From assembly GCA_038062075.1 (NCBI GenBank), contig JBBTXY010000008.1, positions 1 to 57,036 on the forward strand: a stretch of DNA of 57,036 bases. The letters run 5' to 3'. This DNA is from Patescibacteria group bacterium (GTDB lineage Bacteria > Patescibacteriota > Minisyncoccia > Phycocordibacterales > UBA2100). Under the pieces are notes generated by a model. That model ran no database searches, was not told the origin of the DNA, and saw only the letters and a list, made by a program, of their open reading frames with translations. The position numbers were made by a program, and so were the translations under genes. Positions 23,938 to 50,985 of the stretch are shown here, piece by piece; position 1 is the stretch's first letter; each line of letters starts with the position of its first letter.

Positions 23938-23979
23938 CGGGAGATCGTAACTCCCGATATCGGGAGTTACGATCTCCCG
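23938..23979. repeat. 42-bp perfect palindrome made of two inverted REP-like units (intergenic copy)
   Basis: CGGGAGATCGTAACTCCCGAT|ATCGGGAGTTACGATCTCCCG. Confidence 0.95.
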
Positions 23980-23999
23980 GTAGTTGACTTGCGGGATAT

Positions 24000-25073
24000 T
24001 TAGATACCTTCTTTGCGCAACTCTTCGATTGCGACACGTGCGGCTTTTGAAAGTTTCTTCGGAAATTCAATGTCAATGCGCACGAGAAGGTCGCCACGCG
24101 CGCCACGCCCATGCGGAACGCCTTTGCCACGCACACGCAGCATCTCCCCCTGCGTGATACCGGCGGGAACAGTGAGCGTTGTTTCCCCATCCAAGGTCTT
24201 GATGCGATATTCGCCACCAAGCAAGGCGTCGGAAAGTTTAATGGAGAGTGCGGTTACGAGATTGTTGCCTTCGCGCGTAAAGAGCTTGTCCGATTTGACG
24301 TGCACTTTAATGTAGAGGTCGCCGGATGCACCTCCTTGCAGAGCCTCGCCCCGGCCCGGCATGCGGATCATCTCGCCGTCCTCAATGCCGGCGGGGACCA
24401 CAATATGCACTTCTTCCTGTTTCTTCATGACGCCCTCGCCGCGGCACGCTGCGCACGGCTCCTTCGGCACCTCGCCCTTCCCTTTGCAGGTTGGGCACGC
24501 GCGCGCCGAGCTGAACGTGCCAAAAAAGGTGTTGCGTGATTCGCGGATTTGCCCCTTCCCGTTGCAGGCAGTACAGCTAGTCATCGCCGTTCCATTCTTT
24601 GCGCCCATTCCTTCGCAGACATCACAAACCCCAAGTTTGGAAATAAGGACGCGTCGCTCAGCGCCAAAAATGGCGTCACGGAACGGAAGCTCGATATCCA
24701 TGGAGATGTCGCGCCCGCGGCGCGCGCGACTACCTCCACCCCCGAAGAAATCGCCGAAAATGTCGCCGAGGTCGAATTCGACTCCTTGGCCTCCCTGGAA
24801 TCCTTCGAAGCCTGCAAAGTTAGAGAAATCAAAACCGCCAAATCCCGCCCCCTGCTGGGCGCCGCCGGCGAACGTCTGGCCGAACTGATCATATTGCGCA
24901 CGTTTTTTCTCGTCGGAGAGCACGGCATACGCTTCGCTCACCTCTTTGAATTTCGCCTCGTCGCCTCCTTTCTTGTCAGGATGATATTTGTGCGCGAGTG
25001 AGCGGAACGCTTTCTTGATGTCTTCTCCGCTCGCTGACTTCGAGACACCGAGGATAGAATAGTAATCTCTCAT
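24000..25073 (-). CDS. dnaJ: Chaperone DnaJ
   Basis: HPD motif, G/F region, four CxxCxGxG repeats. Confidence 0.97.
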
Positions 25074-25121
25074 ACGAAGCATTATAGTCGCTCACTGAAA
25101 CACTGCAAATGGTGATGTCTA

Positions 25122-26984
25122 CTATGTTCCTTTTTGACTATCTTCCGGGCCCTGTTGCGGCGGTTTTTGGTCGCCCTGCTGTTGGTTTTTCTGCATCGCT
25201 TCCCCAATCGAGCTTAAGGCGCTCGAGAGCGCATCAGCGGCGCTCTTTAGTGCATTCACATCAGTGCCACTCCGCGCCGTCTTTAAGGCGTCGATCTTCT
25301 CTTGCACGTTCTTGCGGATATCCTCACCCACTTTATCGCCATGCTCTTTCAGCGCTTTCTCCGCAGCATACACAAGCTGATCAGCGGCGTTCTGCGCCTC
25401 GGTAAGTTCTCTTTTCTTTTTGTCGGCTTCGGCATTCGCTTCGGCATCAGCGCGCATTTTCTCTATCTCCGCTTCGGTAAGGCCCGAGCGCTGTTCGATG
25501 CGAATAGACTGCTCCTTGCCGCTTGTCTTATCTTTTGCTTTCACAGACAGAATACCGTTCGCATCAATATCGAAAGTGACTTCGATCTGCGGAAGCCCAC
25601 GTGGCGCAGGCGGAATACCATCGAGGTTGAAGCGGCCGAGCGACTTGTTGTCCGCCGCCATGGGGCGCTCGCCCTGGACGACATGGATCTCCACCGACGG
25701 CTGGTTATCGGCCGCGGTCGAGAAAACCTGCGACTTTGAAGTCGGGATAGTGGTGTTGCGTTCGATCAATTTCGTCGCAACGCCGCCGAGAGTCTCGATG
25801 CCGAGGGAAAGCGGGATGACATCGAGAAGCAGCACATCCTTCACATCGCCTTGGAGAATGCCGCCCTGTATCGCCGCGCCCATCGCGACGACCTCATCCG
25901 GATTCACGCCCATGTGCGGCTTCTTATTGAAGAATTTTTCGACAGCTTGCTGCAAAGCCGGCATGCGCGTCTGCCCGCCAACTAAAATGACCTCATTGAT
26001 GTCCGGATTCTTAAAAGGAGAAGCTTCCATCGCGCGTTTCGTGATGTCCATGGCTCGAGCGATGAATTCTTCGGAGAGCTCTTCCAGCTTCGCGCGGGTC
26101 ATCTTGATGAGAAGGTGCCGTGGGCCGGAAGCGTCGGACGTGATGAACGGAATGTTCACTTCAGTTTCCACCGCCGTGGAGAGCTCGATCTTCGCTTTCT
26201 CCGCACCCTCATCGAGGCGCTGGCGTGCCAAGGGGTCGTTGCGCACGTCGATGCCACTCTCCTTCTTGAACTCCTCCGCAAGCCAGTTGATGATTGTCTG
26301 GTCGATGTCTTTCCCGCCCAAATGTGCATCGCCATCGGTGGAGCGCACTTCGATAACATCATCTCCCACTTCAAGAACGGAGATGTCAAAGGTTCCCCCA
26401 CCAAAGTCAAACACGACGATCTTTTCGTTCTTTTTCTTGTTGAAACCGTAAGCCAGGGCCGCCGCAGTCGGTTCGTTGATGATGCGCTTCACGTCGAGGC
26501 CCGCAATTTTTCCCGCGTCTTTCGTCGCTGCGCGTTGCGCGTCATTGAAGTAGGCTGGGACAGTGATGACCGCCTCCGTGATGGTCTCGCCCAATTTCGC
26601 TTCTGCATCTCGCTTTAGTTTTTGCAATATCATCGCCGAGATCTCCTCCGGTGTGTGCCATTTGTCGCCCATCTGGACCTCGATGCCGCTGTTTGAGGAC
26701 TTACGGAGCTCGAATGGGACCACGGCTTTATCTTTCTGCACACCCGGCTCGTCAAACGTATGGCCGATGAAGCGTTTTATCTGATAGACCGTGTTCTTGG
26801 GATTCGTGACCGCCTGACGTCTCGCAAGAAGGCCGACCAAACGCTCGTTGGTTTTTGAAAGCGCAACGACGGAAGGCGTCGTGCGCGCGCCCTCGGCGTT
26901 CTCCAAAATCATCGGTTCCCCACCAGAAACGATGGCCATTGCTGAATTTGTTGTTCCCAAGTCGATGCCTAGAATTTTTGCCAT
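25122..26984 (-). CDS. dnaK: Chaperone DnaK
   Basis: [25 protein letters not shown]. Confidence 0.98.
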
Positions 26985-27067
26985 AGAAGTGTTTTTGAGT
27001 TACGCTGGTAACTTTTTCGAGCGCAAATATACCTACTTACGATACGTCTGTCAAGTTTTTGGCATCT

Positions 27068-27607
27068 TTATTTGAAAATCGCAATCTGCGCGGGACGCAG
27101 GATGCGCTCTTTCGTCCGATAGCCGCGCCGAAACACCTTTGCAATAGTGTGCGGAGTGCCATTGTCGACCTCTTGAATGGCCTCATGTAGGTTCGGGTCG
27201 AACATATCGCCTTCTTTACCAAAAATCTCAACACCATGCGCCTTCAAAACACCCTCGATGTGGGCTTTGATGCTCTCAATACCCGCCCGCCATGTCGCGT
27301 CAACCGTATTCCAGCTCTCTCCCTCCATTGCGAGATCAAATCCATCCAAAGCGGGAATCAGCTCTTCAACAAGGATCTCCTTCCCGCGTGTTCCGGCACG
27401 CGATAATGATTCCTGCACTTCTCTTTTCGCGTTCACCATGTCGGCTTTCGCTCGCTGCCAACCATCAAGATATTCCTGTCGGTCTTTCTTCACTTCTTCG
27501 AGTTCGTCTTTCAGTTTTTTGAGCTTGGCTTTCAATGCGCCAATATCTCCTAGTTCTTCTTCGGGCTCGAAGTCGATATCTTCGTTATCCGATGGAGTAG
27601 AGATCAT
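27068..27607 (-). CDS. grpE: Nucleotide exchange factor GrpE
   Basis: WQRAKAD, FDPNLHEAI, GY..ILRPA. Confidence 0.95.
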   Translation of the reverse strand: MISTPSDNEDIDFEPEEELGDIGALKAKLKKLKDELEEVKKDRQEYLDGWQRAKADMVNAKREVQESLSRAGTRGKEILVEELIPALDGFDLAMEGESWNTVDATWRAGIESIKAHIEGVLKAHGVEIFGKEGDMFDPNLHEAIQEVDNGTPHTIAKVFRRGYRTKERILRPAQIAIFK

Positions 27608-27632
27608 GGCGAGAGTATAGCATTTTCGATCA

Positions 27633-27664
27633 CAAAAAGAGAAGAGTCGCTTTCGCGACTCTTC
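27633..27664 (-). terminator. Intrinsic terminator closing the ribosomal protein operon
   Basis: GAAGAGTCGC-GAAA-GCGACTCTTC-TCTTTTT on the minus strand. Confidence 0.8.
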
Positions 27665-27691
27665 AAGAGATCACCGGATTATGACCACCGT

Positions 27692-27955
27692 TCATATCTT
27701 CTTAGCTTCACTATACGCATCGTACCCCATCCCTGCGGAGAAAAGTAAAAAACCGAAGAATGCTATAGCCTTGCCGATTGGCGTTGCACCCGTAACGAGC
27801 ATAGATGCCCCAATATCGACAAAGGTCAAAATTAAGCCATTCAACGACCAGAGCAGCAGAAATACACCGAGAACTATCCGTCTCTTGATCAAGAGATAGC
27901 CGAGGCCAGGAATGATGACATTGGATACACCCGCAACGATTGGATGGATCTTCAT
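27692..27955 (-). CDS. Small membrane protein
   Basis: 87 aa, IIPGLGYL motif, follows rpsI. Confidence 0.65.
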   Translation of the reverse strand: MKIHPIVAGVSNVIIPGLGYLLIKRRIVLGVFLLLWSLNGLILTFVDIGASMLVTGATPIGKAIAFFGFLLFSAGMGYDAYSEAKKI

Positions 27956-27963
27956 ATTTTCCT

Positions 27964-28356
27964 CTATCGCTTACTCCATTGAGGGGCACGTCGCGCCGCT
28001 TTGAGGCCGAATTTCTTGCGCTCTTTGGCGCGCGGGTCGCGCTTCAAATAGCCTTTTACTTTCAAGTCTTTGCGGAGTGCTGCATCCATTTCGGTAAGCG
28101 CGCGGGAGATGCCGTGGCGCACGGCTTCTGCTTGCGCTTTGTGACCGCCGCCTTTCACGATAGCCGTTACGGTGTAGGCGCCGCCGACGGTCTTAAATGG
28201 CGCGTTCACAGTATCAACCATGACGGGAAGCGGAAAGTAATCCGACGCGTTCTTGTCGTTCACCATGATAGAAGTCGATTTTGCAGAAGCGAGGCGCACG
28301 CGTGCTGATGCCGTCTTCCGGCGCCCGACTGCTTCAATGTATTTCTTTTCGGCCAT
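27964..28356 (-). CDS. rpsI: 30S ribosomal protein S9
   Basis: GRRKTA, GGGHKAQ, ERKKFGL..PQWSKR. Confidence 0.97.
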   Translation of the reverse strand: MAEKKYIEAVGRRKTASARVRLASAKSTSIMVNDKNASDYFPLPVMVDTVNAPFKTVGGAYTVTAIVKGGGHKAQAEAVRHGISRALTEMDAALRKDLKVKGYLKRDPRAKERKKFGLKAARRAPQWSKR

Positions 28357-28403
28357 ATGAATAGTTAGTTAGCCACTAGCGACTAGGGTTTAGGAAGATG
28401 CAT

Positions 28404-28766
28404 TTACTCAGTAACTATTAAACGCTTGAGACGTGCGGTTTTCATCGTGTTGCGCGGAAGCATGCGCTCGACTGCCTTGCGCACTGCGGCACTTGCGCCG
28501 CGGCGGCCGATGAGTGATGCGAGCGTCTCTTTCTTCAAACCTCCCGGATGGCCCGAATAGTGCGTGTAAACCTTACTAAGGCGCTTTTTCTCGCTGATGC
28601 GCATCTTCTTGGCATTCGTGACGCTAACCTTCACCTGCGAAGGAATATGCGGCGTGTAATCGGGAGAAGTCTTCCCCATGAGCGCTCTCGCGACTTCCGA
28701 CGCGACGCGGCCGATGGTTTTGCCAGCGGCATCGATCGTGTAGGTTGTTTCTTTTGTGTGAGCCAT
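28404..28766 (-). CDS. rplM: 50S ribosomal protein L13
   Basis: IDAAGKTIGRVAS, HYSGHPGGLK, AVERMLP. Confidence 0.95.
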   Translation of the reverse strand: MAHTKETTYTIDAAGKTIGRVASEVARALMGKTSPDYTPHIPSQVKVSVTNAKKMRISEKKRLSKVYTHYSGHPGGLKKETLASLIGRRGASAAVRKAVERMLPRNTMKTARLKRLIVTE

Positions 28767-28768
28767 AG

Positions 28769-29122
28769 CTATGCGACAAATTCTATCCGTGCCATTTCGG
28801 CGATACGCTTCCCTATGCGACCGAGGCGCACGATGCGCGTGTAGCCGCCCGCACGTGCTGCATAGCGCGGCGCTAAGGTATCATGCAACTTCTTTACCGC
28901 TTCCGACGAGCGCAGGCGCGACGCGACAATGCGACGGCTCGCAAGGGAACCCTTCTTCGCTTCAGTGACGAGGCCCTCCGCAAAAGGACGCAGTTCCTTC
29001 GCCTTCGCGACGGTAGTCGTAATAGCATCTGCAAGCACCAAGGAACGAGCAAGGGAGCGCAGAAGGGCCTCGCGCTGCGCTTTTGGTCTATTCAGTGTCC
29101 GTCGTTTCTTGTGATGCCGCAT
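28769..29122 (-). CDS. rplQ: 50S ribosomal protein L17
   Basis: MRH, ITTTVAKAKELR, GGYTRI. Confidence 0.96.
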   Translation of the reverse strand: MRHHKKRRTLNRPKAQREALLRSLARSLVLADAITTTVAKAKELRPFAEGLVTEAKKGSLASRRIVASRLRSSEAVKKLHDTLAPRYAARAGGYTRIVRLGRIGKRIAEMARIEFVA

Positions 29123-29172
29123 AAACTAGGTGTTAGGTTCTAGGGACTAGGTTCTAGAAAAAATAAAATACA

Positions 29173-30141
29173 TTATTGGGTACGAAGGGTGAGACCGAGA
29201 TTCGAGAGAGCGCGCTTGATATCTTGCAAGCCTTTTTGGCCCAAGCCCTCGATAGCAAGAAGGTCATCTTCGCGCTTCCTCACGAGGCCGCCGACAGTGC
29301 GAATGGAAGCGTTATCAAGCGCCTGCTCGACACGCTGGGGCAGATTCAGTTCTGAAATGCGCGTCTTCAAGACTTCCGCATCAGCGGTTCTTTCTTCCCG
29401 CCGCGCACCCACTCCTGCCTCTTCGGCAGCGGCTTCCTCGATAACTTCCTCTTCCTTAAAGCCGACGATCGCGCGCAGCTGGTGGATCATCGTCTCGATG
29501 GATCTTTCCAGCGCTTCGCGCGCGGTGATGGTACCGTCCGTCTCAATAAGCATGCGCAGGCGATTGAAGTCGGTGCGGTCACCGACACGCATATTCTCGA
29601 CTTCGTAGTTCACGCGGCGAATGGGGCTGAAAATGGCATCAAGCGCGATCGTGCCGATGTCCACACGCTCCTTTTGATGCACTTCTTTCGGCACATAGCC
29701 GAGCCCGCGCTCCGCGCGGACCTCCATCTCCAATGTGACCTTCCCTGTCACCTCCGCGATGTGCTGCTCGGGGTTCAATATTTCTACTTGGCCGGGTAGA
29801 TCGAAATCGGCGGCCGTTATGGTCTTCGGGCCTTTGACGGAGAGCCTTAAGGTCTGCGGCTCGTCGGTCGTGAGCTTAAGGCGCATCTTGCGCACATTGA
29901 GAAGCAGCGTCACGATATCTTCTTTGACGCCCTCGATGGTCGAGAATTCGTGCGCGACGCCCGGGATCTTCACCGAGGTTACTGCCGCGCCGGGAAGCGA
30001 AGAGAGAATGATACGGCGCAAGGAATTCCCCAATGTATAGCCGTAGCCCGGGTAAAGTCCATCGATCTCATACACACCGCTGCGCTCCGATTCGGAGACG
30101 ACACGCGGTTTAGAAGGCAGTGCAATATGGTAATCCAACAT
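29173..30141 (-). CDS. rpoA: RNA polymerase alpha subunit
   Basis: GYGYTLGNSLRRIILSSLPG, HEFSTIEGVKED, alpha-CTD. Confidence 0.97.
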   Translation of the reverse strand: MLDYHIALPSKPRVVSESERSGVYEIDGLYPGYGYTLGNSLRRIILSSLPGAAVTSVKIPGVAHEFSTIEGVKEDIVTLLLNVRKMRLKLTTDEPQTLRLSVKGPKTITAADFDLPGQVEILNPEQHIAEVTGKVTLEMEVRAERGLGYVPKEVHQKERVDIGTIALDAIFSPIRRVNYEVENMRVGDRTDFNRLRMLIETDGTITAREALERSIETMIHQLRAIVGFKEEEVIEEAAAEEAGVGARREERTADAEVLKTRISELNLPQRVEQALDNASIRTVGGLVRKREDDLLAIEGLGQKGLQDIKRALSNLGLTLRTQ

Positions 30142-30179
30142 ATTAAAAAATGGCGCGAGGTGAATAAGCGCTTATAAAT

Positions 30180-30208
30180 AATATACCCCAAACACTAAAA
30201 AGTGGCAA
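30180..30208 (-). promoter_or_regulatory. Sigma70-type internal promoter for rpoA
   Basis: TTGCCA-N17-TATATT. Confidence 0.6.
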
Positions 30209-30292
30209 GGGTTAGACTGGTAATATTCGGCTGCATGACGTCGATGGCACAAGTGCATAGTAAGCTGGAAAGACTTTAGTGATGGGCAGGCA

Positions 30293-30898
30293 CTAACGCG
30301 AATAAAACTCAAATACTGCCGGATAATCGAGGGGGATCTCTGCAGGCGTATAGGTCGGCTCGCCTTCTATCTTCACCATCATGGTCGGTAGGTCGACGGA
30401 GAGCCATGAGGGAATGGAGCGTGAGGCACTCTCGGGATTCCCCAAGTGAGAGAACAGGGGGCTTTTTCGACTTCCTTCGCGCACCGAGATCGAGTCGCCC
30501 TTCTTAAGGCGCATGGAAGGCGTCGTCACGCGCGTGCCATTCACGACTAAGTGGCCGTGGGATGCCATCTGCCTGGCGGCGCGGCGTGTAAGCGCCAAGC
30601 CTGCACGATACGCGACACTATCGAGACGCATCTCGAGCGCGTGATGCAAACTCTCCGGCGGGTTCGCCGTCTCGAACGCGGCTTCCGCGTAATTGGCAAG
30701 CTGGCGCTCCGGAAGGCCGTAGGTAAAGCGTACTTTCTGCTTTTCCAAAAGTTGCCGGCCGAAATCCGATTTCCCGCGACCGCCACGCGTCTTTTTCGTA
30801 CGCGCCTCGGAGAGCGCGAATTTCTGCGTCTGCGTCTGCTCGAAAATAGCAGCACCTAAACGCTTCGCGATCTTGTATTTTGATTTGATGGGCAGCAT
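30293..30898 (-). CDS. rpsD: 30S ribosomal protein S4
   Basis: QLLEKQK, LEMRLD, ARQMASHGH, EFYSR. Confidence 0.96.
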   Translation of the reverse strand: MLPIKSKYKIAKRLGAAIFEQTQTQKFALSEARTKKTRGGRGKSDFGRQLLEKQKVRFTYGLPERQLANYAEAAFETANPPESLHHALEMRLDSVAYRAGLALTRRAARQMASHGHLVVNGTRVTTPSMRLKKGDSISVREGSRKSPLFSHLGNPESASRSIPSWLSVDLPTMMVKIEGEPTYTPAEIPLDYPAVFEFYSR

Positions 30899-31086
30899 AT
30901 TAGATTTTGTTAGCGAGCGCAGCGAGCTTAGAAAATCTTATACCCGCCCATCCGCCATCTTGTAAATGACGGTCTACATTTAGGTTTGACACGGTGATTT
31001 TTGTAAAGAAGTTGATCATATTTGTTGCAAGTGGCGGATAGGCGGGTGATGAAAATTATTGTCGCTTCGCTCTGTAATTTTCCATC
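30899..31086. repeat. Three-part structured element, copy A (rpsK-rpsD gap)
   Basis: Hairpin with GAGCGCAGCGA; inner IR 30942-30957/31032-31047; hairpin with TCGCTTCGCTC. Confidence 0.85.
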
Positions 31087-31519
31087 AAATGCGGCGAGGC
31101 TTCGGCGGCCGCGGACCGTTGTGCGGGACCGGCGTATCATCGGCGATGCGCGTCACCTCGATGCCTTTGCCGGCAAAACCGCGCAGCGCTGATTCGCGGC
31201 CGCTCCCAACGCCGCGGATGACCACATCGACTTCCTTGACGCCCATCATCGCAGCCTTCTCGCCGAGAAGCTCTCCCACCTTCGCCGCCGCGAATGGCGT
31301 TCCCTTCTTTGCGCCGGAGAAGCCCAAAGCGCCCGAAGACGACCACGCGACAGTATTGCCTTCTTTGTCGGCCAAGGTAACCATCGTGTTGTTGTAGGTC
31401 GCTTGGATAAAGAGCGTTCCTGATGCAAGCGTACGTTTTGCGGTCCTGGCAAGGGAGCGGGATTTCAGTCCCTGATCGACCGTGCCTCCTGATTTCCTGA
31501 TGATGCGTTTTTTGCCCAT
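31085..31519 (-). CDS. rpsK: 30S ribosomal protein S11
   Basis: ATYNNT, KKGTPFAA, PVPHNG. Confidence 0.97.
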   Translation of the reverse strand: MGKKRIIRKSGGTVDQGLKSRSLARTAKRTLASGTLFIQATYNNTMVTLADKEGNTVAWSSSGALGFSGAKKGTPFAAAKVGELLGEKAAMMGVKEVDVVIRGVGSGRESALRGFAGKGIEVTRIADDTPVPHNGPRPPKPRRI

Positions 31520-40859: not shown

Positions 40860-41012
40860 TTTTACTGGCGACGTAGAGCGAGCGAGATGCGAAAGCGCAG
40901 CTTTCGCATCTCCGAGCCGAGGAGCCAGAAACCGGCGCAACGCCCTGCGCTATGCGCAGGGTGTCTTTCGAGCCGCAGGGTGAACGCCCTGCGGTCTCGA
41001 AAGAGCCGGTTT
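40860..41012. repeat. Modular GCA-triloop repeat, long copy with nested hairpins
   Basis: TTTACTGGCGAC..GAGATGCGAAAGC-GCA-GCTTTCGCATCTC-CGAGCCGAGGAGCCAG-AAACCGGC[..]GCCGGTTT. Confidence 0.85.
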
Positions 41013-42433: not shown

Positions 42434-42513
42434 TTTACTGGCGACATAGAGCGAGATGCGAAAGCGCAGCTTTCGCATCTCCGAGCCGAGGAGCCAGAAA
42501 CAGGCGCCGGTTT
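42434..42513. repeat. Modular GCA-triloop repeat, short copy
   Basis: Near-identical direct repeat of 40861-40936, ending AAACAGGCGCCGGTTT. Confidence 0.88.
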
Positions 42514-42520: not shown

Positions 42521-43594
42521 CTACGGCACAATAACGCCCCCGCCGACGAGCGCATCGCCATCATAGAGAACCAACGACTGCCCCGGCGGAGCGAGATGCG
42601 GTTCTCTGAACCGCACCTGATCGCCGGAAACCGTACAGGCGACAGGCGTCTCGCGGTATCGTGCCTGTGCGAGAAGCGGCTCGCCTTCGTACGGCTTCTC
42701 GATCCAATTCGTGTCGGTAAGAGTCACCGATGTGCGCAGCGCTCGCGCCCTGTTTTTTGAAACGGTTATCGTGTTGCGCTTTGTGTCGATCCCAATGACA
42801 TACGATGGCTCTTCGTGCGTGGTCGTCGCGGAAATGCGAAATCCGTGCCGCTCGCCCACGGTATAGAGCGCTGCGCCGTCATGTTCGCCGATAGTCTTCC
42901 CCTCTTCATTGAGTACCGCTCCTTTTTCAAGCGGCAGATAGTGCGCTAAAAAGTCGCGCAATGAGACGTCCCCGACGAAACAAAGCCCCTGACTATCGCG
43001 CTTTTTTGCGACGGGAAGCCTGAATTGTTCCGCGAGTGCACGCACCTCCGGCTTCGTATAGCCGCCGACCGGAAAGAGTGTTTTGGAGAGGTCGTCTTCG
43101 GTGAGCTGCCAGAGGAAATAACTTTGGTCCTTGTTGAGATCCTTACCGCGGAGAAGTCGATGGTGTCCGGGAGATCGTAACTCCCGATATCGGGAGTTAC
43201 GATCTCCCGATATCGTCATAATTTTAACATAATGACCTGTCGCAATTATATCGGCGCCTTCTGCAAATGCCCACTTCTTGAACGCACCGAACTTAATGTG
43301 CCGGTTGCAGAGAACATCCGGATTCGGCGTCACGCCCCGCGCATAGTTCGCGACCATGTCATCAATGACCGACTTTTTATACTCCTCGGAAAGATCGATT
43401 TCCTTAAAGGGAATCCAGAGCGCGGCGCACACCCGCATCGCGTCAAGCCTGTCTTTCTGCCACGGACACTCGATGAACTCCGGCCGCCATATCTTAATGA
43501 ACGCGCCCACAACATCGTAGCCCTGTTCTTTCAAAAGCGCGGCCGAAACAGCGCTATCGACGCCGCCGGAGAGACCGACAAATACTTTGCTCAC
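42521..43594 (-). CDS. mnmA: tRNA 2-thiouridylase MnmA with an in-frame palindrome insertion
   Basis: SGGVDS, TPNPDVLCN, ATGHY, KDQSYFL, SQGLCF. Confidence 0.96.
   Translation of the reverse strand: MSKVFVGLSGGVDSAVSAALLKEQGYDVVGAFIKIWRPEFIECPWQKDRLDAMRVCAALWIPFKEIDLSEEYKKSVIDDMVANYARGVTPNPDVLCNRHIKFGAFKKWAFAEGADIIATGHYVKIMTISGDRNSRYRELRSPGHHRLLRGKDLNKDQSYFLWQLTEDDLSKTLFPVGGYTKPEVRALAEQFRLPVAKKRDSQGLCFVGDVSLRDFLAHYLPLEKGAVLNEEGKTIGEHDGAALYTVGERHGFRISATTTHEEPSYVIGIDTKRNTITVSKNRARALRTSVTLTDTNWIEKPYEGEPLLAQARYRETPVACTVSGDQVRFREPHLAPPGQSLVLYDGDALVGGGVIVP
43168..43209. repeat. 42-bp REP-like palindrome inside mnmA
   Basis: Identical to 23938-23979; contributes GDRNSRYRELRSP. Confidence 0.95.
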
Positions 43595-43697: not shown

Positions 43698-44747
43698 TTA
43701 GGTTCCTAAATACAACTTCTTCTTCCTCAAATGCTCCTCGTATGTCTTCGAATAGTGGGTCACGTGGTTCTTATCGGCGAGATAGAAAAGATACCCTTCG
43801 TCGATGGGCGCCACGGCAGCACGCAGGGATGAAAGCGATGGCGAGCCGATGGGCCCCGGCGGCAGGCCTTTGTTGGCGTAGGTATTATAGGGGTCATCTT
43901 CGTTTTTGAGGTCGGCATTCGTAAGGCTGAACGTTGAGCGCCCGATGGAGTAGAGGAATGCCGCATCAACCTGGAGGGCCATACCTATCTTGATGCGCCG
44001 CCAGAGGACTCCCGCGATCATGCGCCGATCTTGCGCCGTATGGGCTTCTTTCTCGAGAATGGATGCCATGATGACGACTTCCGAAAGGGGCTTCCCAAAG
44101 TCGGCGATCTCTCCCGCAAGGGAGGCGATGTGCGTATCGAAGTTCTGCCGCAGTGCTTTCAGAACGACTTCTTCGGTCGCATTGGGAAGGAAGAAATAGG
44201 TATCCGGGAACAGATACCCTTCTTGCGGCTGTGCTTCCGTGAGAAATTTCTCTTCGTCAAAACGCTGGAGCTGTGCGCCGAATAATTTCGCCATCTCTTT
44301 CGTCGTCATCCCTTCGGTGACGCGGATGCGGATGGGTTCGAGACCGAACGCACCGGTCGTGATGGCACGCGCAACAGAGAAGAAATCCTTAGGCTCCTTA
44401 AAGAGATAATCGCCCGCGCGCACGCCGCGCTCCGCGCCGAGCATCATGACCGCAAGGCGGAGCGCGAAACCGCTTCGAACGACCTTTTGCTCTTCAAGAA
44501 GCATGCCCACTTCTTCTGCCGTCGCGCCCTCGGGAACGGTGATCAGCTGCCCCACCGGAAACCCTCGTGGCGGCGCGACAACGGACACATATATGAGAAG
44601 TGCGGCTGTACCGATGGCGATGATAAGAAAGAGCGAACGACGATTTGCCCCCTCCTGCCAGCGCACGGTGATCGCCTCTTCCATCCTCCCCGCAAACGAC
44701 ACGAGCGTACGGAGCTGCTGAATGAGCGCGTCAAAGAATTTTTGCAT
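43698..44747 (-). CDS. mltG: Endolytic transglycosylase MltG
   Basis: EGYLFPDTY, MASILEKE, PYNTY..GLPPGPI. Confidence 0.94.
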   Translation of the reverse strand: MQKFFDALIQQLRTLVSFAGRMEEAITVRWQEGANRRSLFLIIAIGTAALLIYVSVVAPPRGFPVGQLITVPEGATAEEVGMLLEEQKVVRSGFALRLAVMMLGAERGVRAGDYLFKEPKDFFSVARAITTGAFGLEPIRIRVTEGMTTKEMAKLFGAQLQRFDEEKFLTEAQPQEGYLFPDTYFFLPNATEEVVLKALRQNFDTHIASLAGEIADFGKPLSEVVIMASILEKEAHTAQDRRMIAGVLWRRIKIGMALQVDAAFLYSIGRSTFSLTNADLKNEDDPYNTYANKGLPPGPIGSPSLSSLRAAVAPIDEGYLFYLADKNHVTHYSKTYEEHLRKKKLYLGT

Positions 44748-44755
44748 GGAAGGTA

Positions 44756-46210
44756 TTACACCGGGAGATTCGGCGGCGGCGGCGCCTTCGCCGAAGGAAT
44801 GCGCTGGAGGCCTGGCACTTGGATCGTCCTCGATGGCGGATGCCAGATGGTCGCCAAGGTCTCGACACTCGTGATGTTGTATGGCGTTTTCCAGGGATCA
44901 TGGAATACTTGGCGTCGGCGATACCGGTCGAAATACCGGCGCATTTCGATTTCCCACCGGATGCCGTTCCAATCTTGCCACTCGTAATCCCACACGTTGT
45001 GGCCGCGACGCGGACGAAGCATGACCATGTAGTTCGGGTTCGCAAATGGCCGATAGAGCCAGCGTATCGCCGTATATTCGGAGCTGCGCATCTTCCTGCG
45101 CGGCGCGATGTAGATGCCACGGCCGCAGAATTCGAACGGAAGTTTCCCCAAATGCCGCGCCATGGCGGCCATCTGCGCGCGCTGCTGCTCCGTCGGATGG
45201 GGGAATCCGTACTTGATCTCCTCCCCACCATTGGGCATTTCAGCCGCTTTTTTACGGATCATCTCGACCTCTTCCTCGACGATTTTCTTCCAGTCACTCA
45301 CCAAGTGAGAACGAAAGACGATCTGCACCCACGCCTGCTCATCGTGGTTCAAAGCACCTAAAGTCTCCAGAACCTGCGCAAAAGGCTCCACTTTGAATTC
45401 TTCCTTCGGGTCTTTATCAAGCTCGAAGTCGATATACGTACGGATGCTATACGCGTTAAGACGGGGGCTGCTTTCATCTTTAATGTGATTAGCTACAAAA
45501 ATGTAATCGGTACCGAACCCCTCGTATTTCTTCGGGTCATACTGGAAACGCATCGCATAATCCTCAACCTCCACGAGCTCAACCTCCGGATACTGGGCAT
45601 ACATGCTTGCTTCCACCATGTTCTTGAAAGCTTTTCTTGTCCAGATGTAAAAATGGATCTCACCGCCAAAAGACGCTATCTCCAACGAAAAGTAGGGGCG
45701 GCAACCACCGTGCCACACGCGATCAATAAAGGTCGTCTCGCTCGCGCGGATCCAAAAACCCGTCAAAACTTGCTCCATGGCTCGAGGGGATTTCGTGACT
45801 TCCATGGGCATCTTCACTTCAAGAAGAACGGGGTTTGTCCGGCGGAAAATATAATTTGACCGTACGTACCACATCCACGCTGCCGAAAATCCGAGGATAA
45901 ACCCGACAACGCCGATAATGGGCGAGAACAACAACAACCACGCCCAAGTTAGCGTGATGAAGGACGGAAAGAGTATATACGCGCCGATAAAGAGTGGGAT
46001 AAACAAACCAGTAATAAAAAGTGCACGCGAAATACCCCAATCTCCAACGTAATCCACCCATTCCTCGAGATTCATCAACCCTCCGATCTTCCCCAGGAGC
46101 GATTTCTCGTACTTCCCGCCGTGGTGGGGTGAGATCAAGGTCTCAATGCCGCCCGCGACCGATTCGAACGCTGCGTCAATAGCGGATTTCCCTTTTGCCT
46201 CTTCGGCCAT
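44756..46210 (-). CDS. Membrane-anchored hypothetical protein of CPR type
   Basis: Two TMs; KSPRAMEQV, FSLEIAS, YAQYP, ETLATIWHPP, PPPNLP. Confidence 0.75.
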   Translation of the reverse strand: MAEEAKGKSAIDAAFESVAGGIETLISPHHGGKYEKSLLGKIGGLMNLEEWVDYVGDWGISRALFITGLFIPLFIGAYILFPSFITLTWAWLLLFSPIIGVVGFILGFSAAWMWYVRSNYIFRRTNPVLLEVKMPMEVTKSPRAMEQVLTGFWIRASETTFIDRVWHGGCRPYFSLEIASFGGEIHFYIWTRKAFKNMVEASMYAQYPEVELVEVEDYAMRFQYDPKKYEGFGTDYIFVANHIKDESSPRLNAYSIRTYIDFELDKDPKEEFKVEPFAQVLETLGALNHDEQAWVQIVFRSHLVSDWKKIVEEEVEMIRKKAAEMPNGGEEIKYGFPHPTEQQRAQMAAMARHLGKLPFEFCGRGIYIAPRRKMRSSEYTAIRWLYRPFANPNYMVMLRPRRGHNVWDYEWQDWNGIRWEIEMRRYFDRYRRRQVFHDPWKTPYNITSVETLATIWHPPSRTIQVPGLQRIPSAKAPPPPNLPV

Positions 46211-46257
46211 TCCTTAAGTATATCAATTTTTCTCCAGCGATACGAAGGCGATTAACA

Positions 46258-46382
46258 ACAGCGCTCGTGAAGGCGCACCATATGCGGTGCCTAGCGAGCC
46301 CGACGGGGCGAGCTCGAGGAATTTTTCAGTAGAAAAATATCCGTGCACCGCATATGGTGCGCCGGAGCGAAACCTGCGCTGT
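46258..46382. repeat. Multi-stem intergenic element with a 19-bp perfect inverted repeat
   Basis: GGCGCACCATATGCGGTGC (46272-46290) / GCACCGCATATGGTGCGCC (46345-46363); outer ACAGCGC/GCGCTGT. Confidence 0.8.
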
Positions 46383-46383
46383 A

Positions 46384-47406
46384 TTACCTCCCAATCGCGT
46401 ACTTCCCGTCCTCCCGCCGCTTAAATTCAGAGTGCTGGAGATTAACGACGATGGTCGCGTCTTTGACATATCGCTCGCGCTTCACGCGCTCGATGATCTC
46501 CTCGCGCGTGAGAGCCCCGTCGCGTTCGATGATGTTGCGGATGACCTCGCGCACGACGCCGGGCGCATAGCCCCATTCCTTCAAGGCGTAGAGGCCGCGG
46601 CCGACGAGGACGAAACGGCTGTCCTTGATGAGTTCGTTGTGGGTTGTCGCCGGGTGCGCCTCGCGTTTGAAGAGGTCGTGGATGCCCTTCGCGACTTCGG
46701 TGAAGTGCATGGGCGAACCGTGACGCTTCAAGGTAAGATACGCGAAATCGCGGGTGTTCTTGATGCGCACATGGGGCGACTCCATCCGCCCCCACTCGCC
46801 CAAAGGGTTCTTGCCGAGGCGCTTCGAGAGCGCGAGCCAACGCAAGAGCACCTCCTCTTCTCGAAGCTTCACACCCGCCACCTTCAAGTAGCGTGCGAAC
46901 TCTTCGAGGAACTCGTCTTCCGGAAGAAGCGCGGTCGGTTCGATCGATTCATAGAGTTCGGAAAGCGCCTGCTCCACCGCTTCGGCGAGCGTCGCATCCA
47001 CGTACCACCGACGGTGAAAATCCGGAGTCTCGCGCTTGTCGATAAAATGAGCCCCTACCGTGAGGATGAAGAGCACGTGATTGCGCTCCGCCTCACTCTT
47101 CGGGATAAGCGTCAAAATGGTGTGTTCCGCAAGGACGGCGCCCAATTCCGCGATCGCTTTCTTAAGCTCCTCGAGCGTCCGCGCATGCGCGGCGTAGCTC
47201 TCCGAATCACGGATGCTCGCAAGGCCGCCGCTCTCTATCTGGCGGATGCGCTCGCGGGTGATGCCATATTCCTTCCCAATAGCCTCGAGCGTGCGCCCCT
47301 TCCCCTCGGAGAAGAGACCGAAACGGTCGGAAAGCACTTTGCGAACGCGCTCCGGGAGTCCGACGAGGAGATCTTTGGTGACTGACTTGGCTTGGAATGA
47401 TTGCAT
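46384..47406 (-). CDS. Sigma70 region-4 HTH fused to HARE-HTH (RNAP delta-like) domains
   Basis: RFGL..TLEAIGKEYGITRERIRQIE; HNELIKDSRFVLVGRGLYALKEW. Confidence 0.8.
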   Translation of the reverse strand: MQSFQAKSVTKDLLVGLPERVRKVLSDRFGLFSEGKGRTLEAIGKEYGITRERIRQIESGGLASIRDSESYAAHARTLEELKKAIAELGAVLAEHTILTLIPKSEAERNHVLFILTVGAHFIDKRETPDFHRRWYVDATLAEAVEQALSELYESIEPTALLPEDEFLEEFARYLKVAGVKLREEEVLLRWLALSKRLGKNPLGEWGRMESPHVRIKNTRDFAYLTLKRHGSPMHFTEVAKGIHDLFKREAHPATTHNELIKDSRFVLVGRGLYALKEWGYAPGVVREVIRNIIERDGALTREEIIERVKRERYVKDATIVVNLQHSEFKRREDGKYAIGR

Positions 47407-47472
47407 GGTAGTGCAAATAATTGACTCTACTCAATTCGTATGATGTACCTTATATCAATTACCCCCCAGACT

Positions 47473-47612
47473 GTCAACCCCGTTAGAAGTCCTTGGTGAA
47501 AATATTTACCTTTGGAGGTAAATATTTCGTGGTCTTATCAAATACGATACGTAACGTAATACCTTGATTCACAGAACATTAATACCCTGCCACAGACTTC
47601 TAACGGGGTCAA
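47473..47612. mobile_element. 130-bp MITE-like element with 5-bp duplication GTCAA
   Basis: GTCAA|CCCCGTTAGAAGTC...GACTTCTAACGGG|GTCAA; internal hairpin AAATATTTACCT/AGGTAAATATTT. Confidence 0.7.
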
Positions 47613-47708
47613 TACTTTCCCTTATCAACAGTCATATCACAGATAAGTCACAGATGCGAGGGCTCTGCGGCTCGGCCTTCCGAAACGCCTCTGTGATAGA
47701 ATCGCTTC

Positions 47709-50375
47709 ATGGCCTCCTCCTCCCGCGTGCCCCCGCAAGATATTGACACGGAGCGCGCGCTCCTCGGCGCCCTCATGATAAATCAAAGTGCCATCTACGA
47801 AGTTGCCGATGTCGTGCATGTCGATTCGTTCTATGCAGGGAAACACCGCGCTATCTACGACGCTATGCTGAGCCTCTACGGGAAAGGCGAGCCTATCGAC
47901 ATTGTGACGGTCGCAGGGAAACTCACGGAGCGGAAACAGCTTGAAGAGATCGGCGGGCGAAGCTACCTCACGGAATTGGTGGAAGCGGCGGCCTCCCCCG
48001 GCTCGGCGCGACACTACGCACAGACGGTGCAAACGAAATACTTGCTGCGCTCCCTGATCGACGCCGCCGCAAAAATCGGCGAACTCGGCTTCCAGGAAGA
48101 CCGCGAAATAGAACAAATCCTCGACGAGGCGCAGCAGGCCGTTTTCGCGGTCTCGAATGCTCCCATGCTGCGTAACTTCACCGCCATCAAGGAAGAACTC
48201 CACGAGGCGTGGGAACGCTTGGAGAACCTCCAAAAACATACTGGTTCCTTGCGCGGCATCCCCACCGGCTTCCCTGCGCTCGACAATATGCTCTCTGGAT
48301 TACAAGAATCGGACCTCGTCATCCTTGCCGCGCGTCCTTCGATGGGAAAGACAGCACTCGCCCTCGATATCGCGCGGCAAACGGCTACCAAACACCAAAC
48401 GGCTGTCGGTATCTTCAGCCTCGAAATGAGCTCGCAACAACTTGTGGATCGTATGCTTGCCGCGCAAGCCGGCGTCAATGCGTGGCGACTGCGTACTGGG
48501 AAGATATCGAGAGATGATGAATATGAACGCTTGCAAGCTGGTATCGCCGAACTCTCCGAAGCGCCAATTTTCATCGACGACAAAGCAAGTAACACCGTCT
48601 TAGGCATGCGCTCCGTCGCCCGCCGACTGAAAATGGAAAAAGGTCTCGGACTCGTCATCGTCGATTACCTCCAGCTCATCGTACCCCCAACTGCTGGCTC
48701 GAACGTCTCCGTCGTGCAGCAAGTGACAGAGATCTCGCGTTCCTTGAAAGGCATGGCGCGCGAGCTGCGCGTTCCCGTCCTCGCGCTCTCGCAGCTCTCG
48801 CGCGCGATCGAGACCCGCCGCGGCCGTCCGCGCCTCTCCGATCTACGCGATTCGGGCTGTCTTACCGGAGATACTCTGATCCAGAGGGCGGATACCGGCG
48901 AACGTATACCAATTAAGGCATTGGTCGGAAAGACGAATGTTCCGCTCGTTTCCATGGATGCGTCGTATCGCCTTCGTCCCATGCTTGCCTCCGCTGTTTT
49001 CTCGAGTGGGGAAAAACAGGTCTTTTCACTCACAACCAGAAGCGGCCGCACGATCAAGGCATCCGGGAATCATCAATTCCTTACCTTCGAGGGGTGGCAG
49101 CGCCTTGATGCGCTTCAGGAGGGCGATCGGATCGCACTGCCGCGGTTCCTTACGGCGCAGGAAGCGCCGAGCCAGCTTTCCGTCAATGAACTCGTTCTGC
49201 TCGCGCATCTTCTCGGTGACGGGTGCGTTCTGCCGCGCCAGCCCATTCATTACACGAGCGCCGATGAAAAGAATATCGAAGCGGTAGAAACGGCGGCGGG
49301 CGCGCTCTTCGGTATCGCGCCACGGCGAATCCGGCAAAAGAATTGGTGGCATAGCTATCTTCCGTCCCCGTATCGCCTGACACATGGCAAACATCACCCC
49401 ATCACAGATTGGTTTTCGCGACTTAACATCGCGCCAGTGCGCTCATATGAAAAACGAGTGCCCCAATCAGTTTTTGCTACTGACTCGAGATCCATTCAAC
49501 TCTTTCTTCACCACCTGTGGGCGACCGATGGTAACATTTCGTGGAAAAAACTTCCGGGACGAAAACCTGCGGCAGCCATTTACTACGCGACGTCCAGCCG
49601 TGGACTCGCCGATGACGTCCAGCATCTTCTCCTACGCCTCGGCATCTGGAGCACCGTGCGCTCTGTCGCACAAGGCGTACATCGCGCGAACTACCATGTG
49701 CTCATTCAGAGCGCGCCGGTCCAATTGCGCTTTCTCGAGCTCGTGGGTTCCTACGGCGGACGTGGCGCGATCGTGCCGAAGCTTCAAGAGGCGCTTCGCG
49801 CGATAGCGCCGCTCCCGAACACCGACACCATTCCTCAAGAGGTCTGGCAGTTGGTGAGCAGGGAAAAAGAACGTGGTGGTATGAGTTGGCGTGGTGTCGC
49901 GAAGTCTCTAGATGTCTCGTACAACGGCAGCGCACTTATGGCAACAGGCGTCTCCCGAACGCGTCTTGCGCAAGTTGCAAAAGCGATCGGCAGCGAGACG
50001 TTAGTGCATCTCGCCGAATCGGACATTTACTGGGATGAAGTGGCATCGATCGAACCACTCGCAGTCGAAGAAGTATTTGATATCAGCGTGCCGGGGACTC
50101 ATAACTTCGTCGCAGGAGACATGCTTGTTCATAACAGCATCGAGCAAGATGCCGACGTCGTCATGTTCATCCATCGCGAGGACAAAATGGACCGTGAAGC
50201 GGAGAAGACGAATGTGGCGGAAATCCTCATCGAAAAACACCGCAATGGTCCTATTGGTAAAATTGACCTCCTCTTCGACGAGGAGAAAACGACGTTCCGC
50301 TCCATCGAGAAAGCCGATTTCGGCGACTTCACGCCGGAGGCGGCAGTTGCTGGAGAAGAAGGACAGCCGTTCTAG
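47709..50375 (+). CDS. dnaB: Replicative DNA helicase containing an intein
   Basis: AARPSMGKT, FSLEM, IVDYLQL, LSQLSR, LRDSG|intein|SIEQDAD. Confidence 0.97.
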   Translation: MASSSRVPPQDIDTERALLGALMINQSAIYEVADVVHVDSFYAGKHRAIYDAMLSLYGKGEPIDIVTVAGKLTERKQLEEIGGRSYLTELVEAAASPGSARHYAQTVQTKYLLRSLIDAAAKIGELGFQEDREIEQILDEAQQAVFAVSNAPMLRNFTAIKEELHEAWERLENLQKHTGSLRGIPTGFPALDNMLSGLQESDLVILAARPSMGKTALALDIARQTATKHQTAVGIFSLEMSSQQLVDRMLAAQAGVNAWRLRTGKISRDDEYERLQAGIAELSEAPIFIDDKASNTVLGMRSVARRLKMEKGLGLVIVDYLQLIVPPTAGSNVSVVQQVTEISRSLKGMARELRVPVLALSQLSRAIETRRGRPRLSDLRDSGCLTGDTLIQRADTGERIPIKALVGKTNVPLVSMDASYRLRPMLASAVFSSGEKQVFSLTTRSGRTIKASGNHQFLTFEGWQRLDALQEGDRIALPRFLTAQEAPSQLSVNELVLLAHLLGDGCVLPRQPIHYTSADEKNIEAVETAAGALFGIAPRRIRQKNWWHSYLPSPYRLTHGKHHPITDWFSRLNIAPVRSYEKRVPQSVFATDSRSIQLFLHHLWATDGNISWKKLPGRKPAAAIYYATSSRGLADDVQHLLLRLGIWSTVRSVAQGVHRANYHVLIQSAPVQLRFLELVGSYGGRGAIVPKLQEALRAIAPLPNTDTIPQEVWQLVSREKERGGMSWRGVAKSLDVSYNGSALMATGVSRTRLAQVAKAIGSETLVHLAESDIYWDEVASIEPLAVEEVFDISVPGTHNFVAGDMLVHNSIEQDADVVMFIHREDKMDREAEKTNVAEILIEKHRNGPIGKIDLLFDEEKTTFRSIEKADFGDFTPEAAVAGEEGQPF
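48858..50135 (+). mobile_element. 426-aa intein with LAGLIDADG homing endonuclease
   Basis: Starts CLTGDT; block B SGNH; LLAHLLGDG and FLHHLWATDG; ends THNFVAGDMLVHN followed by Ser+1. Confidence 0.96.
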
Positions 50376-50376
50376 T

Positions 50377-50985
50377 ATGCCGAGAGATCCGATCGAGCGC
50401 CTAAGCGCTCTCTTCGAAAAATTCCCCGGCATCGGCCCCAGGCAGGCACAACGCTTCGTGCAGTTCCTTCTACGCTCGTCATCTACTACTCGACGGGAGC
50501 TCACGGAATCCATACGCGAGCTCGGAAGTTCGGTGCACCAGTGCCCCGAATGCATGCGTTTCTCTTCAGGTGAGAAAGGACTCTGCAATATCTGCGCAAA
50601 CAAAGAACGCGACATTTCGCTTCTTGCAATCGTCGCATCCGACGCCGATCTCTCTGCCTTGGAGCGCTCCCACACCTACCGCGGCCGCTACTTCGTCCTC
50701 GGCGGCCTGTTGCTCCTTTCTTCGGAGCGAACCAACGGCCTGCGCATCAAGGAACTTCTCACTTCTATTCCGAAACGTGCGAAAGCCGGGCTTAAGGAAA
50801 TCATTCTCGCCTTCCCGGCAAACCCCGAAGGCGACTCGACCGCTATCCGCATATCTCACGAATGTCGGGAGATCGTAACTCCCGATATCAAAATCTCTAC
50901 CCTCGGCCGCGGTCTCTCGACTGGGAGCGAACTTGAATACGCGGACCCGGACACTCTAAAGAGCGCGCTTGATAATCGAAAATAA
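50377..50985 (+). CDS. recR: Recombination protein RecR
   Basis: FPGIGPRQAQR HhH, C4 zinc finger, Toprim, GSELEYAD. Confidence 0.93.
   Translation: MPRDPIERLSALFEKFPGIGPRQAQRFVQFLLRSSSTTRRELTESIRELGSSVHQCPECMRFSSGEKGLCNICANKERDISLLAIVASDADLSALERSHTYRGRYFVLGGLLLLSSERTNGLRIKELLTSIPKRAKAGLKEIILAFPANPEGDSTAIRISHECREIVTPDIKISTLGRGLSTGSELEYADPDTLKSALDNRK
50866..50889. repeat. Half copy of the REP-like palindrome inside recR
   Basis: CGGGAGATCGTAACTCCCGATATC, 24/24 match; encodes REIVTPDI. Confidence 0.9.

Follow-up and report, generated by a model that had tools for sequence, protein, structure and literature searches.

A palindrome recurring inside protein-coding genes is probably the hairpin repeat of a RAYT-like transposase system in a Patescibacteria genus

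Why does one and the same palindrome stand between two genes of a bacterial contig and, in frame, inside others? The question is raised by a 57,036-nt contig of a Patescibacteria group bacterium (GenBank assembly GCA_038062075.1, contig JBBTXY010000008.1; the window, by which we mean this whole stretch), where a 42-nt palindrome lies beside dnaJ and inside mnmA, and a single unit of it inside recR. The original prediction, made from the letters of the window alone, took it for a recently active selfish repeat, like the repetitive extragenic palindromes (REPs), that adds peptide loops to host proteins. Our analysis indicates that the palindrome is very probably a REP-type hairpin repeat of a transposase system in this genus, whose enzyme resembles the REP-associated tyrosine transposases (RAYTs) and is related to TnpA_REP, of the HUH/Y1 kind. 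The evidence points to old sites that are kept uniform in each genome, not to fresh random insertions. Part of the host protein sequence is set by the repeat, and relatives carry a hairpin at the same gene positions. Below, G000 is the assembly to which the window belongs as contig C8 (815 kb, 33 contigs, 90% complete); other C and G numbers denote its further contigs and other genomes.

In the window, the 21-nt half of the palindrome has five exact sites, at 23938-23958 (+), 23959-23979 (-), 43168-43188 (+), 43189-43209 (-) and 50866-50886 (+). The chance expectation is 0.01, none of 100 shuffles gave five, and no extra site appeared in the window at up to 3 mismatches. As predicted, the 42-nt perfect palindrome is identical at 23938-23979 and 43168-43209, and the stretch common to the two doublets comes to 46 nt, in opposite orientation. 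Predicted folds of the single-stranded DNA reach -25.2 kcal/mol (z -11.0) and -24.3 kcal/mol (z -8.2) for the doublets and -7.1 kcal/mol (z -4.0) for the recR unit; the 50-nt intergenic doublet folds into one 23-bp hairpin. The copies and the genes around them are as follows.

23934..23983, no strand assigned: intergenic hairpin doublet (42-nt perfect palindrome 23938-23979 plus paired flanks), 20 nt past the dnaJ stop and upstream of the open reading frame at 23390-23884 (-), from repeat search and fold
24000..25082, minus strand: dnaJ, adjoining the intergenic doublet (Pfam DnaJ, DnaJ_CXXCXGXG, DnaJ_C)
23390-23884, minus strand: open reading frame without a Pfam family in the Pfam search
43164..43213, no strand assigned: hairpin doublet inside mnmA, in frame (42-nt palindrome 43168-43209), with the minus-strand reading SGDRNSRYRELRSP
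42521..43594, minus strand: mnmA, tRNA 2-thiouridylase, frame intact (Pfam tRNA_Me_trans domains, 244.5 bits; PDB 2der, E 9e-81)
50862..50888, plus strand: single 27-nt hairpin unit inside recR, in frame, with the reading (C)REIVTPDI
50383..50985, plus strand: recR (Pfam RecR_HhH, Toprim_4, RecR_C; RecR structures, E 1e-27)

The doublet centre holds a GATATC site. An intrinsic terminator role for the copy after dnaJ was considered and dropped, as no T-run follows on the dnaJ strand.

Genome-wide, G000 contains 10 units at six loci, and five of the six loci lie in frame inside genes for MnmA, RecR, UvrC, UvrB and PheT (hosts assigned by Pfam). Seven of the units are identical to the base, and the reading frames are open through all genic copies. 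Units occur singly or as head-to-head doublets. UvrC carries a doublet identical to that of MnmA and read in the same frame (SGDRNSRYRELRSP in both), UvrB has two units of a perfect-stem variant (loop side ATCGTAT) around a 32-nt spacer, with two frames used, and PheT has one unit of this perfect-stem ATCGTAT variant.

Aligning the 10 units of G000 with 125 units from 24 relatives (135 units from 25 genomes, oriented by the loop) gave the consensus AT(A/G)T-CGGGAnnTCGTAnnTCCCG-A(T/C)AT, a 27-nt hairpin with a 12-bp stem and a CGT loop. Conservation extends four bases past the 19-nt core on each side, as AT(A/G)T and A(T/C)AT, and these four flanking pairs are Watson-Crick in 130, 99, 100 and 112 of the 135 units, with a drop to 36 at pair 5. 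With these conserved, mutually paired flanks counted in, the hairpin unit comes to 27 nt, and the recR copy, which had been described as a 24-bp half copy, is instead a complete single unit at 50862-50888. The hairpin originally drawn as CGGGAG-ATCGTAA-CTCCCG is a hairpin indeed, but its core stem, 8 bp long around a CGT loop, is weakened by an A.A mismatch. At stem pair 6/14, 67 units have G-C, 54 T-A, 9 C-G and 3 T.G, and in 2 the pair is broken; that three Watson-Crick types occur at this one pair shows selection on the hairpin, not on the peptide. Pair 7/13 is T-A in 76 units, A-T in 30 and A.A, the mismatch of the window's variant, in 26. In a MITE-type test (miniature inverted-repeat transposable element), the conserved 4 nt outside the core belonged to the stem and no separate direct duplication was visible, although an AT/TA duplication could hide in the ATAT flanks.

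The link to a transposase comes from the relatives. A loose hairpin pattern matched 43 of 116 genomes of the genus, compared with 0 or 1 match per strand, in few genomes, for a reversed control; a stricter pattern matched none of 24 genomes from other families of the order. In several genomes, three hairpin copies stood about 165 and about 530 nt apart. In G010 the three copies belong to a gene for a 216-aa protein bearing the motifs NHYHLL and YIHLNP: one hairpin comes just before the ATG, another lies in frame inside the gene and a third just after the stop. A search for such loci gave 10 candidates, the start-motif pattern having missed G031 and G107, where homologues are present. At all eight resolved loci, in eight related genomes, a hairpin lies 7-20 nt upstream of the ATG of a RAYT-like gene; in seven of the eight a hairpin lies 3-20 nt past the stop, and in seven of the eight one lies at codon 46. 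The stem type at pair 6/14 is constant over the copies at each RAYT locus, while pair 7/13 differs between copies in G118 and G104, and the RAYT locus of G104 carries exactly the hairpin variant of the window. The original prediction had called for a RAYT or Y1 transposase gene flanked by the repeat; such genes exist in the relatives, at these eight resolved loci, but none is flanked by the window's hairpin in G000.

The RAYT-like proteins are about 216-226 aa long, and H71, H73 and Y131, which lie in the NHYHLL and YIHLNP motifs, are invariant in all six that we aligned. A profile built from the six had a sole match in the PDB, E. coli TnpA_REP (4er8; E 0.007), to which both the HUH motif and the tyrosine motif align; a PDB search with a single RAYT-like sequence gave chance-level matches only, with 4er8 at E 0.58. 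In NCBIfam, REP_Tyr_transpos (NF047646) was the only match for each of the six. All 12 chosen relatives have the family (1-15 matches each), as do 33 of 120 other genomes sampled from the phylum. The richest case seen was G118, whose genome of about 1 Mb has 15 profile matches and three hairpin variants that total at least 19 units, which makes it well suited to asking how enzymes and hairpins pair.

G000 itself encodes five RAYT-like paralogues, 27-66% identical to the G010 protein, which score 25.5-36.2 bits with Pfam Y1_Tnp (cut-off 23). Each has a private hairpin, on both sides for four of them and upstream only for C3:78750, and an internal hairpin copy lies at the homologous loop in two of the five. 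Four of the genes (C13:14-667, C13:32867-33514, C3:78750-79427 and C3:98842-99510) have private, unrelated hairpins; the fifth, C21:36979-37656, is flanked and interrupted by a hairpin that we call family B (GATGGAC-ATCGTAA-GTCCATC; copies within C21:36943-37678), which has the same ATCGTAA loop and another stem. Family B comprises 14 units, nearly all spanned by open frames of at least 150 aa, and is found at 11 other places (on C1, C13, C21, C22, C28 and C33), including a second site in PheT. Two of the four genes on C13 and C3 sit at contig ends, and the cognate transposase gene of the window's hairpin in G000 is either unassembled or lost. G000 also has a classical IS200/IS605-type TnpA (C31:13242-13601; Y1_Tnp 117.5 bits; 170-aa open frame) that is distinct from the RAYT-like genes.

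Where the hairpins lie in other genomes was surveyed from the DNA around the 125 units, which come from 24 of the 42 other matching genomes (single-hit genomes, most of them with a mismatch, were left out). Sixty-one units are inside genes conserved with G000, in that the alignment extends on both sides; 16 are at RAYT-like genes, 40 have no G000 homologue and 8 are ambiguous. The 61 in-gene units make up 43 genome-by-gene cases on only 17 genes, with TsaD as host in nine genomes, PheT in six, PurL in four, UvrC, RecR and AdoHcyase in three each, and UvrB, MurB, a Mur ligase and a zincin in two each. Random placement, weighted by length over 786 genes, never hit fewer than 37 genes and never put more than five genomes on one gene in 5000 runs; the simulation placed 45 cases against 43 observed, which is slightly conservative, and ignored kinship.

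In the alignments, the hairpin positions match to the residue between genomes, even as the hairpins themselves change. At the RecR position, G000 and G118 have a GAG..CTC stem, G014 an ATCGTAT form and G068 a TTT/AAA form with a flipped loop, and the encoded peptides differ (REIVTPDI, REIVSPDI, RDLRNPDI) while the hairpin is kept. At the UvrB position, G118 has the window's doublet and G068 a hairpin of another RAYT family. UvrA, PheT, PurL, TsaD and AtpG orthologues recur as hairpin hosts in relatives; at TsaD, PheT site 1, PurL and AtpG, G000 has family B where others have family A, and likewise at UvrA, about 15 residues apart. The UvrC loop between two cysteine pairs holds the window's doublet family in G000, G104 and G118, and unrelated long palindromes in G097, G092, G119, G085 and G068, the one in G097 being a perfect 46-nt palindrome. 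One of these five (G085) turned up again beside a RAYT-like gene of the same genome, in a comparison that covered part of the paralogues (three of four matches in G068, three of five in G085). In the MnmA loop, 7 of 29 orthologues have hairpins with the same loop and other stems. Within a genome the copies tend to be alike: a single variant accounts for 11 of 11 units in G113, 8 of 8 in G110, 7 of 7 in G014, 6 of 6 in G107, and 4 of 4 in each of G027, G116 and G010, and two or three variants were found in a few genomes, including G118, G031, G104, G068 and G000.

Eight close relatives have no hairpin at any of the five genic sites of G000, and their genes are intact. In a four-protein tree (unrooted, shown with a midpoint root), G000 is basal to these eight element-free genomes and stands between them and a clade of G118, G104, G068 and G109; the node joining G000 to the G118 clade has a support of 0.83, and the distance from G000 to G118 is about 0.7 substitutions per site. 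Given this position of G000, a single loss in the eight-genome clade suffices. At that distance, neutral inheritance cannot account for the 42-nt identity among G000, G104 and G118. That the repeat is a recently active invader, as originally proposed, is doubtful: distant genomes, too, have hairpins of this family or of sister families at the recR, uvrC, uvrB, pheT and mnmA positions, so the sites look old or strongly preferred.

What the hairpin does to its host proteins differs from site to site. Against E. coli MnmA (PDB 2der), the only gap nearby is one of 13 residues, exactly over the palindrome-coded residues, and the predicted spacing from GHY to RLLRG was confirmed in this alignment (23 residues here versus 10 in E. 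coli). Across 29 orthologues of the genus, the ATGHY-RG stretch has 9 residues in 8 and 13 in 10, and in G000 it has 26; all but one of the eight orthologues with the 9-residue loop are among the closest to G000. An AlphaFold2 model of MnmA (mean pLDDT 89) shows a beta-hairpin (strands 123-127 and 145-149) whose low-confidence tip is formed by the insert, with a 10-residue block, 131-140, at pLDDT 54. A 30-residue insert in UvrB is absent in the 7 closest orthologues, and the UvrC loop varies in length everywhere. The RecR loop has the same length as in 10 orthologues of the genus (3 aa more than in PDB 5zvq), and the hairpin there replaces loop residues; PheT gains 1 aa. Since RecR and PheT are length-neutral, the earlier view that the repeat adds peptide loops fits three of the five genic sites in G000 (MnmA, UvrB and UvrC), whereas the others are in-place rewritings. 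The same is seen in AdoHcyase of G068, G110 and G113, where the hairpin-coded VGIYEIPT aligns without gaps to VADYGIPV of PDB 7o5l, inside a conserved motif; by our own count, the AdoHcyase codons of G000 match the hairpin at 12 of 24 bases. For TsaD, the PDB alignment of the hairpin-bearing protein ended short of the C-terminal hairpin and gave no outgroup length there. Under the explanation that we favour, the hairpin would contribute 8-15 residues to surface loops of its host proteins.

Could it be the peptide that is conserved, and not the DNA? The peptide SGDRNSRYRELRSP is identical in MnmA and UvrC of G000 and in UvrC of G104 and G118, as a selected motif would have it. However, RecR reads this DNA in another frame (as REIVTPDI, so that the different frames noted originally for these two genes were both recovered) and UvrB reads it in two, all three frames are used among the 61 in-gene units (SGD.., REI../RDL.., IG.Y..P), one copy is intergenic, and at the RecR site it is the peptides that vary. 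This frame usage already contradicts a peptide motif, which we regard as extremely improbable, and bears out the prediction of a REP-like DNA repeat. A repeat wrongly stitched into genes by assembly or binning is just as hard to credit. Palindromes do break de Bruijn graphs, contig C13 starts inside a hairpin of this kind after a RAYT-like gene, and no public-run contig bridges the whole mnmA palindrome. Yet the assembled contigs of public runs support both junctions at 0 mismatches in two other samples from one study, where one contig covers the left flank as far as 43196 and another starts at 43184 and continues into the right flank; in a second study they support the left junction up to 43180. 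No public-run contig joins the mnmA flanks without the palindrome, the frames are open through every copy, and the independent assemblies G118, G104, G068 and G014 have hairpins at the same codons.

Two further explanations deserve more weight. If an active selfish element had inserted recently, independently and nearly at random, only in-frame copies in permissive loops would survive, and the same loops would fill independently. The base-identical units of G000 and the absence of the MnmA, UvrB and UvrC inserts from the closest relatives would agree with this, as would the modelled position of the MnmA insert at what appears to be a floppy beta-hairpin tip. The unrelated palindromes in the UvrC loop of five genomes and the other stems in the MnmA loop likewise fit, so these loops accept many different elements. 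Recent insertion is nonetheless unlikely in our view, given 17 host genes where no simulation gave fewer than 37, one gene occupied in nine genomes where at most five were simulated, positions that are exact to the residue, length-neutral copies in RecR, PheT, the TsaD C-terminus and AdoHcyase that are not insertions, and a tree that permits a single loss in the eight "empty" genomes. Somewhat less likely still is that the hairpins are not selfish but host-beneficial cis elements in DNA or mRNA (for pausing, stability or protein binding), with the RAYT-like protein as their domesticated maintainer. Positions kept over very divergent genomes with compensating stem changes would suit such a role, and the hosts are biased to DNA repair (UvrA, UvrB, UvrC, RecR, TopA) and to tRNA and translation (PheT, LeuRS, MnmA, TsaD). 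The same bias is reported for other phyla in the excerpted text of one survey, which speculates on altered repair (PMC3733652), and tnpA_REP genes are described as housekeeping-like in a passage of another paper (PMC8266576). On the other side, the eight close relatives do without hairpins at all five sites, the hosts also include PurL, AdoHcyase, MurB, a Mur ligase, AtpG and malic enzyme, the loop orientation flips at one site between genomes, and 40 of the 125 units lie outside genes shared with G000.

A RAYT-like system acting on old sites remains the reading that we prefer, and it invites a mechanism that we offer more tentatively. For E. coli TnpA_REP, the part of PMC8266576 available to us describes cleavage 5' or 3' of single-stranded REPs and strand transfer in vitro, and still calls the spread of REPs unresolved. 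By analogy, the transposase would cut single-stranded hairpins at their base and join them to another hairpin, in a strand exchange. The occupied sites would be old, and the copies within a genome would be kept alike and occasionally swapped, flipped or re-seeded. New sites would be rare, arising by net insertion (MnmA, UvrB and UvrC) or, with the length unchanged, by converting sequence that was already partly similar (RecR and PheT, and AdoHcyase in relatives), and host tolerance would let only copies in permissive loops with an open frame survive. Hairpin exchange would explain the fixed positions, the alike copies, the flipped loops and the replacement of one family by another, and the frame would be preserved because the unit length is constant. 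Such exchange or conversion is a possibility to which we give rather less than even weight. The same caution applies to its fuller form, in which codon positions are fixed and ancient and the hairpins are continually rewritten in each genome, by strand exchange or templated conversion, to the preferred sequence of the resident RAYT-like enzyme.

Several observations weigh against the RAYT-like system and the proposed history of its sites. The REP_Tyr_transpos scores, 31-45 bits, are below the cut-off of 80, and those for Y1_Tnp are barely above theirs; the proteins are thus distant, longer relatives of RAYTs. A GTAG, CGTC or GTGG tag within 9 nt of either end was found in 1, 2 and 0 of the 135 units, respectively. 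No RAYT-like gene flanked by a CGGGAG-type hairpin is present in the G000 assembly, because of which present-day activity in that genome is unproven. Nothing shows mobility directly: neither a target-site duplication nor an empty-site polymorphism was seen in the public-run contigs, and the strand-exchange step is drawn from in vitro work on a distant enzyme. The length-neutral copies in RecR, PheT and AdoHcyase are ill-suited to simple insertion. The simulation rejects independent random insertion only, and not shared ancestry, as kin are not independent, and the conserved positions are equally compatible with hairpins that no longer move. Finally, G000, G104 and G118 share an identical variant though closer relatives lack the element, which implies either loss in the closer clade, as the tree allows, or transfer.

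REPs are textbook "extragenic" elements, and we know of no mobilising enzyme for the palindromic elements of Rickettsia (RPEs), of which RPE-1, at about 100-150 bp, is much longer than the hairpin here. All genic copies of the hairpin resemble RPEs in being palindromic repeats that stand in frame in genes that keep an open frame. As with RPEs, the genes stay functional, the genome is small and reduced, and different frames are used (PMC3733652, in the sections available). Unlike RPEs, which we compare by way of working only and not by sequence, the hairpin flanks a cognate RAYT-like gene in relatives.

In-gene REPs of the GTAG and CGTC super-families are a second point of comparison. In the accessible text of Di Nocera et al. 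2013 (PMC3733652), they are singles or dimers coding for about 20-30 residues, thought to occupy linkers or loops; many lie in genes for excision repair or recombination, tRNA synthetases and tRNA-modifying enzymes, and R. conorii uvrB has two. The units described here are similarly short palindromes inside known genes, single or dimeric, with repair and tRNA hosts, but only 1-2 of 135 carry the GTAG or CGTC tag. Most REPs in that survey are intergenic as far as its available text goes, whereas five of six loci in G000 are genic. Measured against the same text, the hairpins here also differ in recurring with residue-exact positions over very divergent genomes, some copies overwriting conserved residues with the length unchanged.

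With REPtrons (a REP or BIME, bacterial interspersed mosaic element, together with TnpA_REP) the system shares a Y1/HUH gene flanked by a genome-dispersed hairpin, and inverted doublets like those of BIMEs or REPINs (REP doublets forming hairpins). Perfectly palindromic REPs are known from Group 3 RAYT enzymes, according to an excerpt of PMC8266576. Unlike REPtron RAYTs, the proteins here have about 80 extra C-terminal residues, are only distant relatives and number up to 15 paralogues per genome; their repeats, about 10-20 per genome, are mostly intragenic, and not extragenic as in REPtrons (five of six loci in G000, and 61 of the 125 units of the 24 relatives in conserved genes). By motifs and length only, the proteins resemble TnpA_Y1 subclass 2.1 as summarised in the available part of Quentin et al. 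2018 (PMC6006769; NH[YF]H, FQ, Y[IV]HLNP, mean 238 aa), for which no REP structure is tabled there, unlike the clear cognate hairpins seen here. For subclass 2.4 the same part mentions REPs "inserted in tnpAREP", a feature that recurs here as the hairpin at codon 46 of the RAYT-like gene. IS200/IS605 elements also have a Y1/HUH transposase that acts on single-stranded hairpins at the element ends, but in our case the hairpins are scattered on their own, with no gene attached, and the Y1_Tnp scores of the RAYT-like proteins are low (25-36 bits).

In the library searched, we found no paper linking RPEs or REPINs with Patescibacteria, the candidate phyla radiation (CPR) or Kaiserbacteria. In-frame palindromes (Rickettsia RPEs), in-gene REPs often in repair genes (PMC3733652) and hairpins inside tnpA_REP genes (PMC6006769) are already known from the available portions of these papers. 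Relative to those portions, what is new is the mainly intragenic life of a RAYT-linked hairpin, the residue-exact recurrence of its sites over a deep radiation with concerted stem change, and the length-neutral overwriting of a conserved motif.

A second repeat family is present in the window, a 59-nt unit with the palindrome GAGATGCGAAAGCGCAGCTTTCGCATCTC at 40880-40938 and 42449-42507 (direct, 98%), the latter copy just beyond the mnmA 3' end. Part of it recurs inverted at 22016-22038, and further copies are at C1:45016-45044 and C28:17139-17167 of G000; all are apparently intergenic, and the repeat could represent an extragenic REP of the classical type, or something akin to a terminator. 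At the window's end (56984-57034), a palindrome with 23-nt arms shares sequence with the first bases of C28, so the uvrC-uvrA-murB-uvrB block of C28 probably directly follows the window, the assembly having broken in the palindrome. The ends of C14, C30, C32 and C33, as well as the starts of C17 and C22 and the ends of C16 and C28, share sequences of about 45 nt, one with the palindrome CCTCGCAGCAGAGCTGCGAGG; at these repeats, too, the assembly broke. In public run X2, at a loose end at window position 43214, a contig sharing the hairpin (3 mismatches in 33 nt) enters a flank absent from G000; it stems either from one more copy in sequence missing from the assembly or from a copy that another organism in the sample carries.

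These findings have practical consequences: such repeats break assemblies, and the 8-30 residues that they add to or rewrite in marker and annotation proteins (UvrB, PheT, TsaD, RecR and MnmA) may mislead alignments of Patescibacteria proteins. In a lineage with almost no intergenic space, an element of the REP kind is found mainly inside essential genes, in few copies and with an identifiable cognate enzyme. This offers a small natural data set in which enzyme variant, hairpin variant and site can be compared over more than 100 genomes, and in which spread by insertion and spread by conversion are distinguishable. If the tentative model of continual rewriting is true, the transposase would be a site-keeping "editor" of host coding sequence, under which stems change by compensating pairs, loops flip and families replace one another. 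Even conserved enzyme motifs could be replaced at constant length, as where VGIYEIPT takes the place of the V..YGIPV motif of AdoHcyase, and part of the protein sequence of essential genes would track the specificity of a DNA enzyme, not the needs of the protein.

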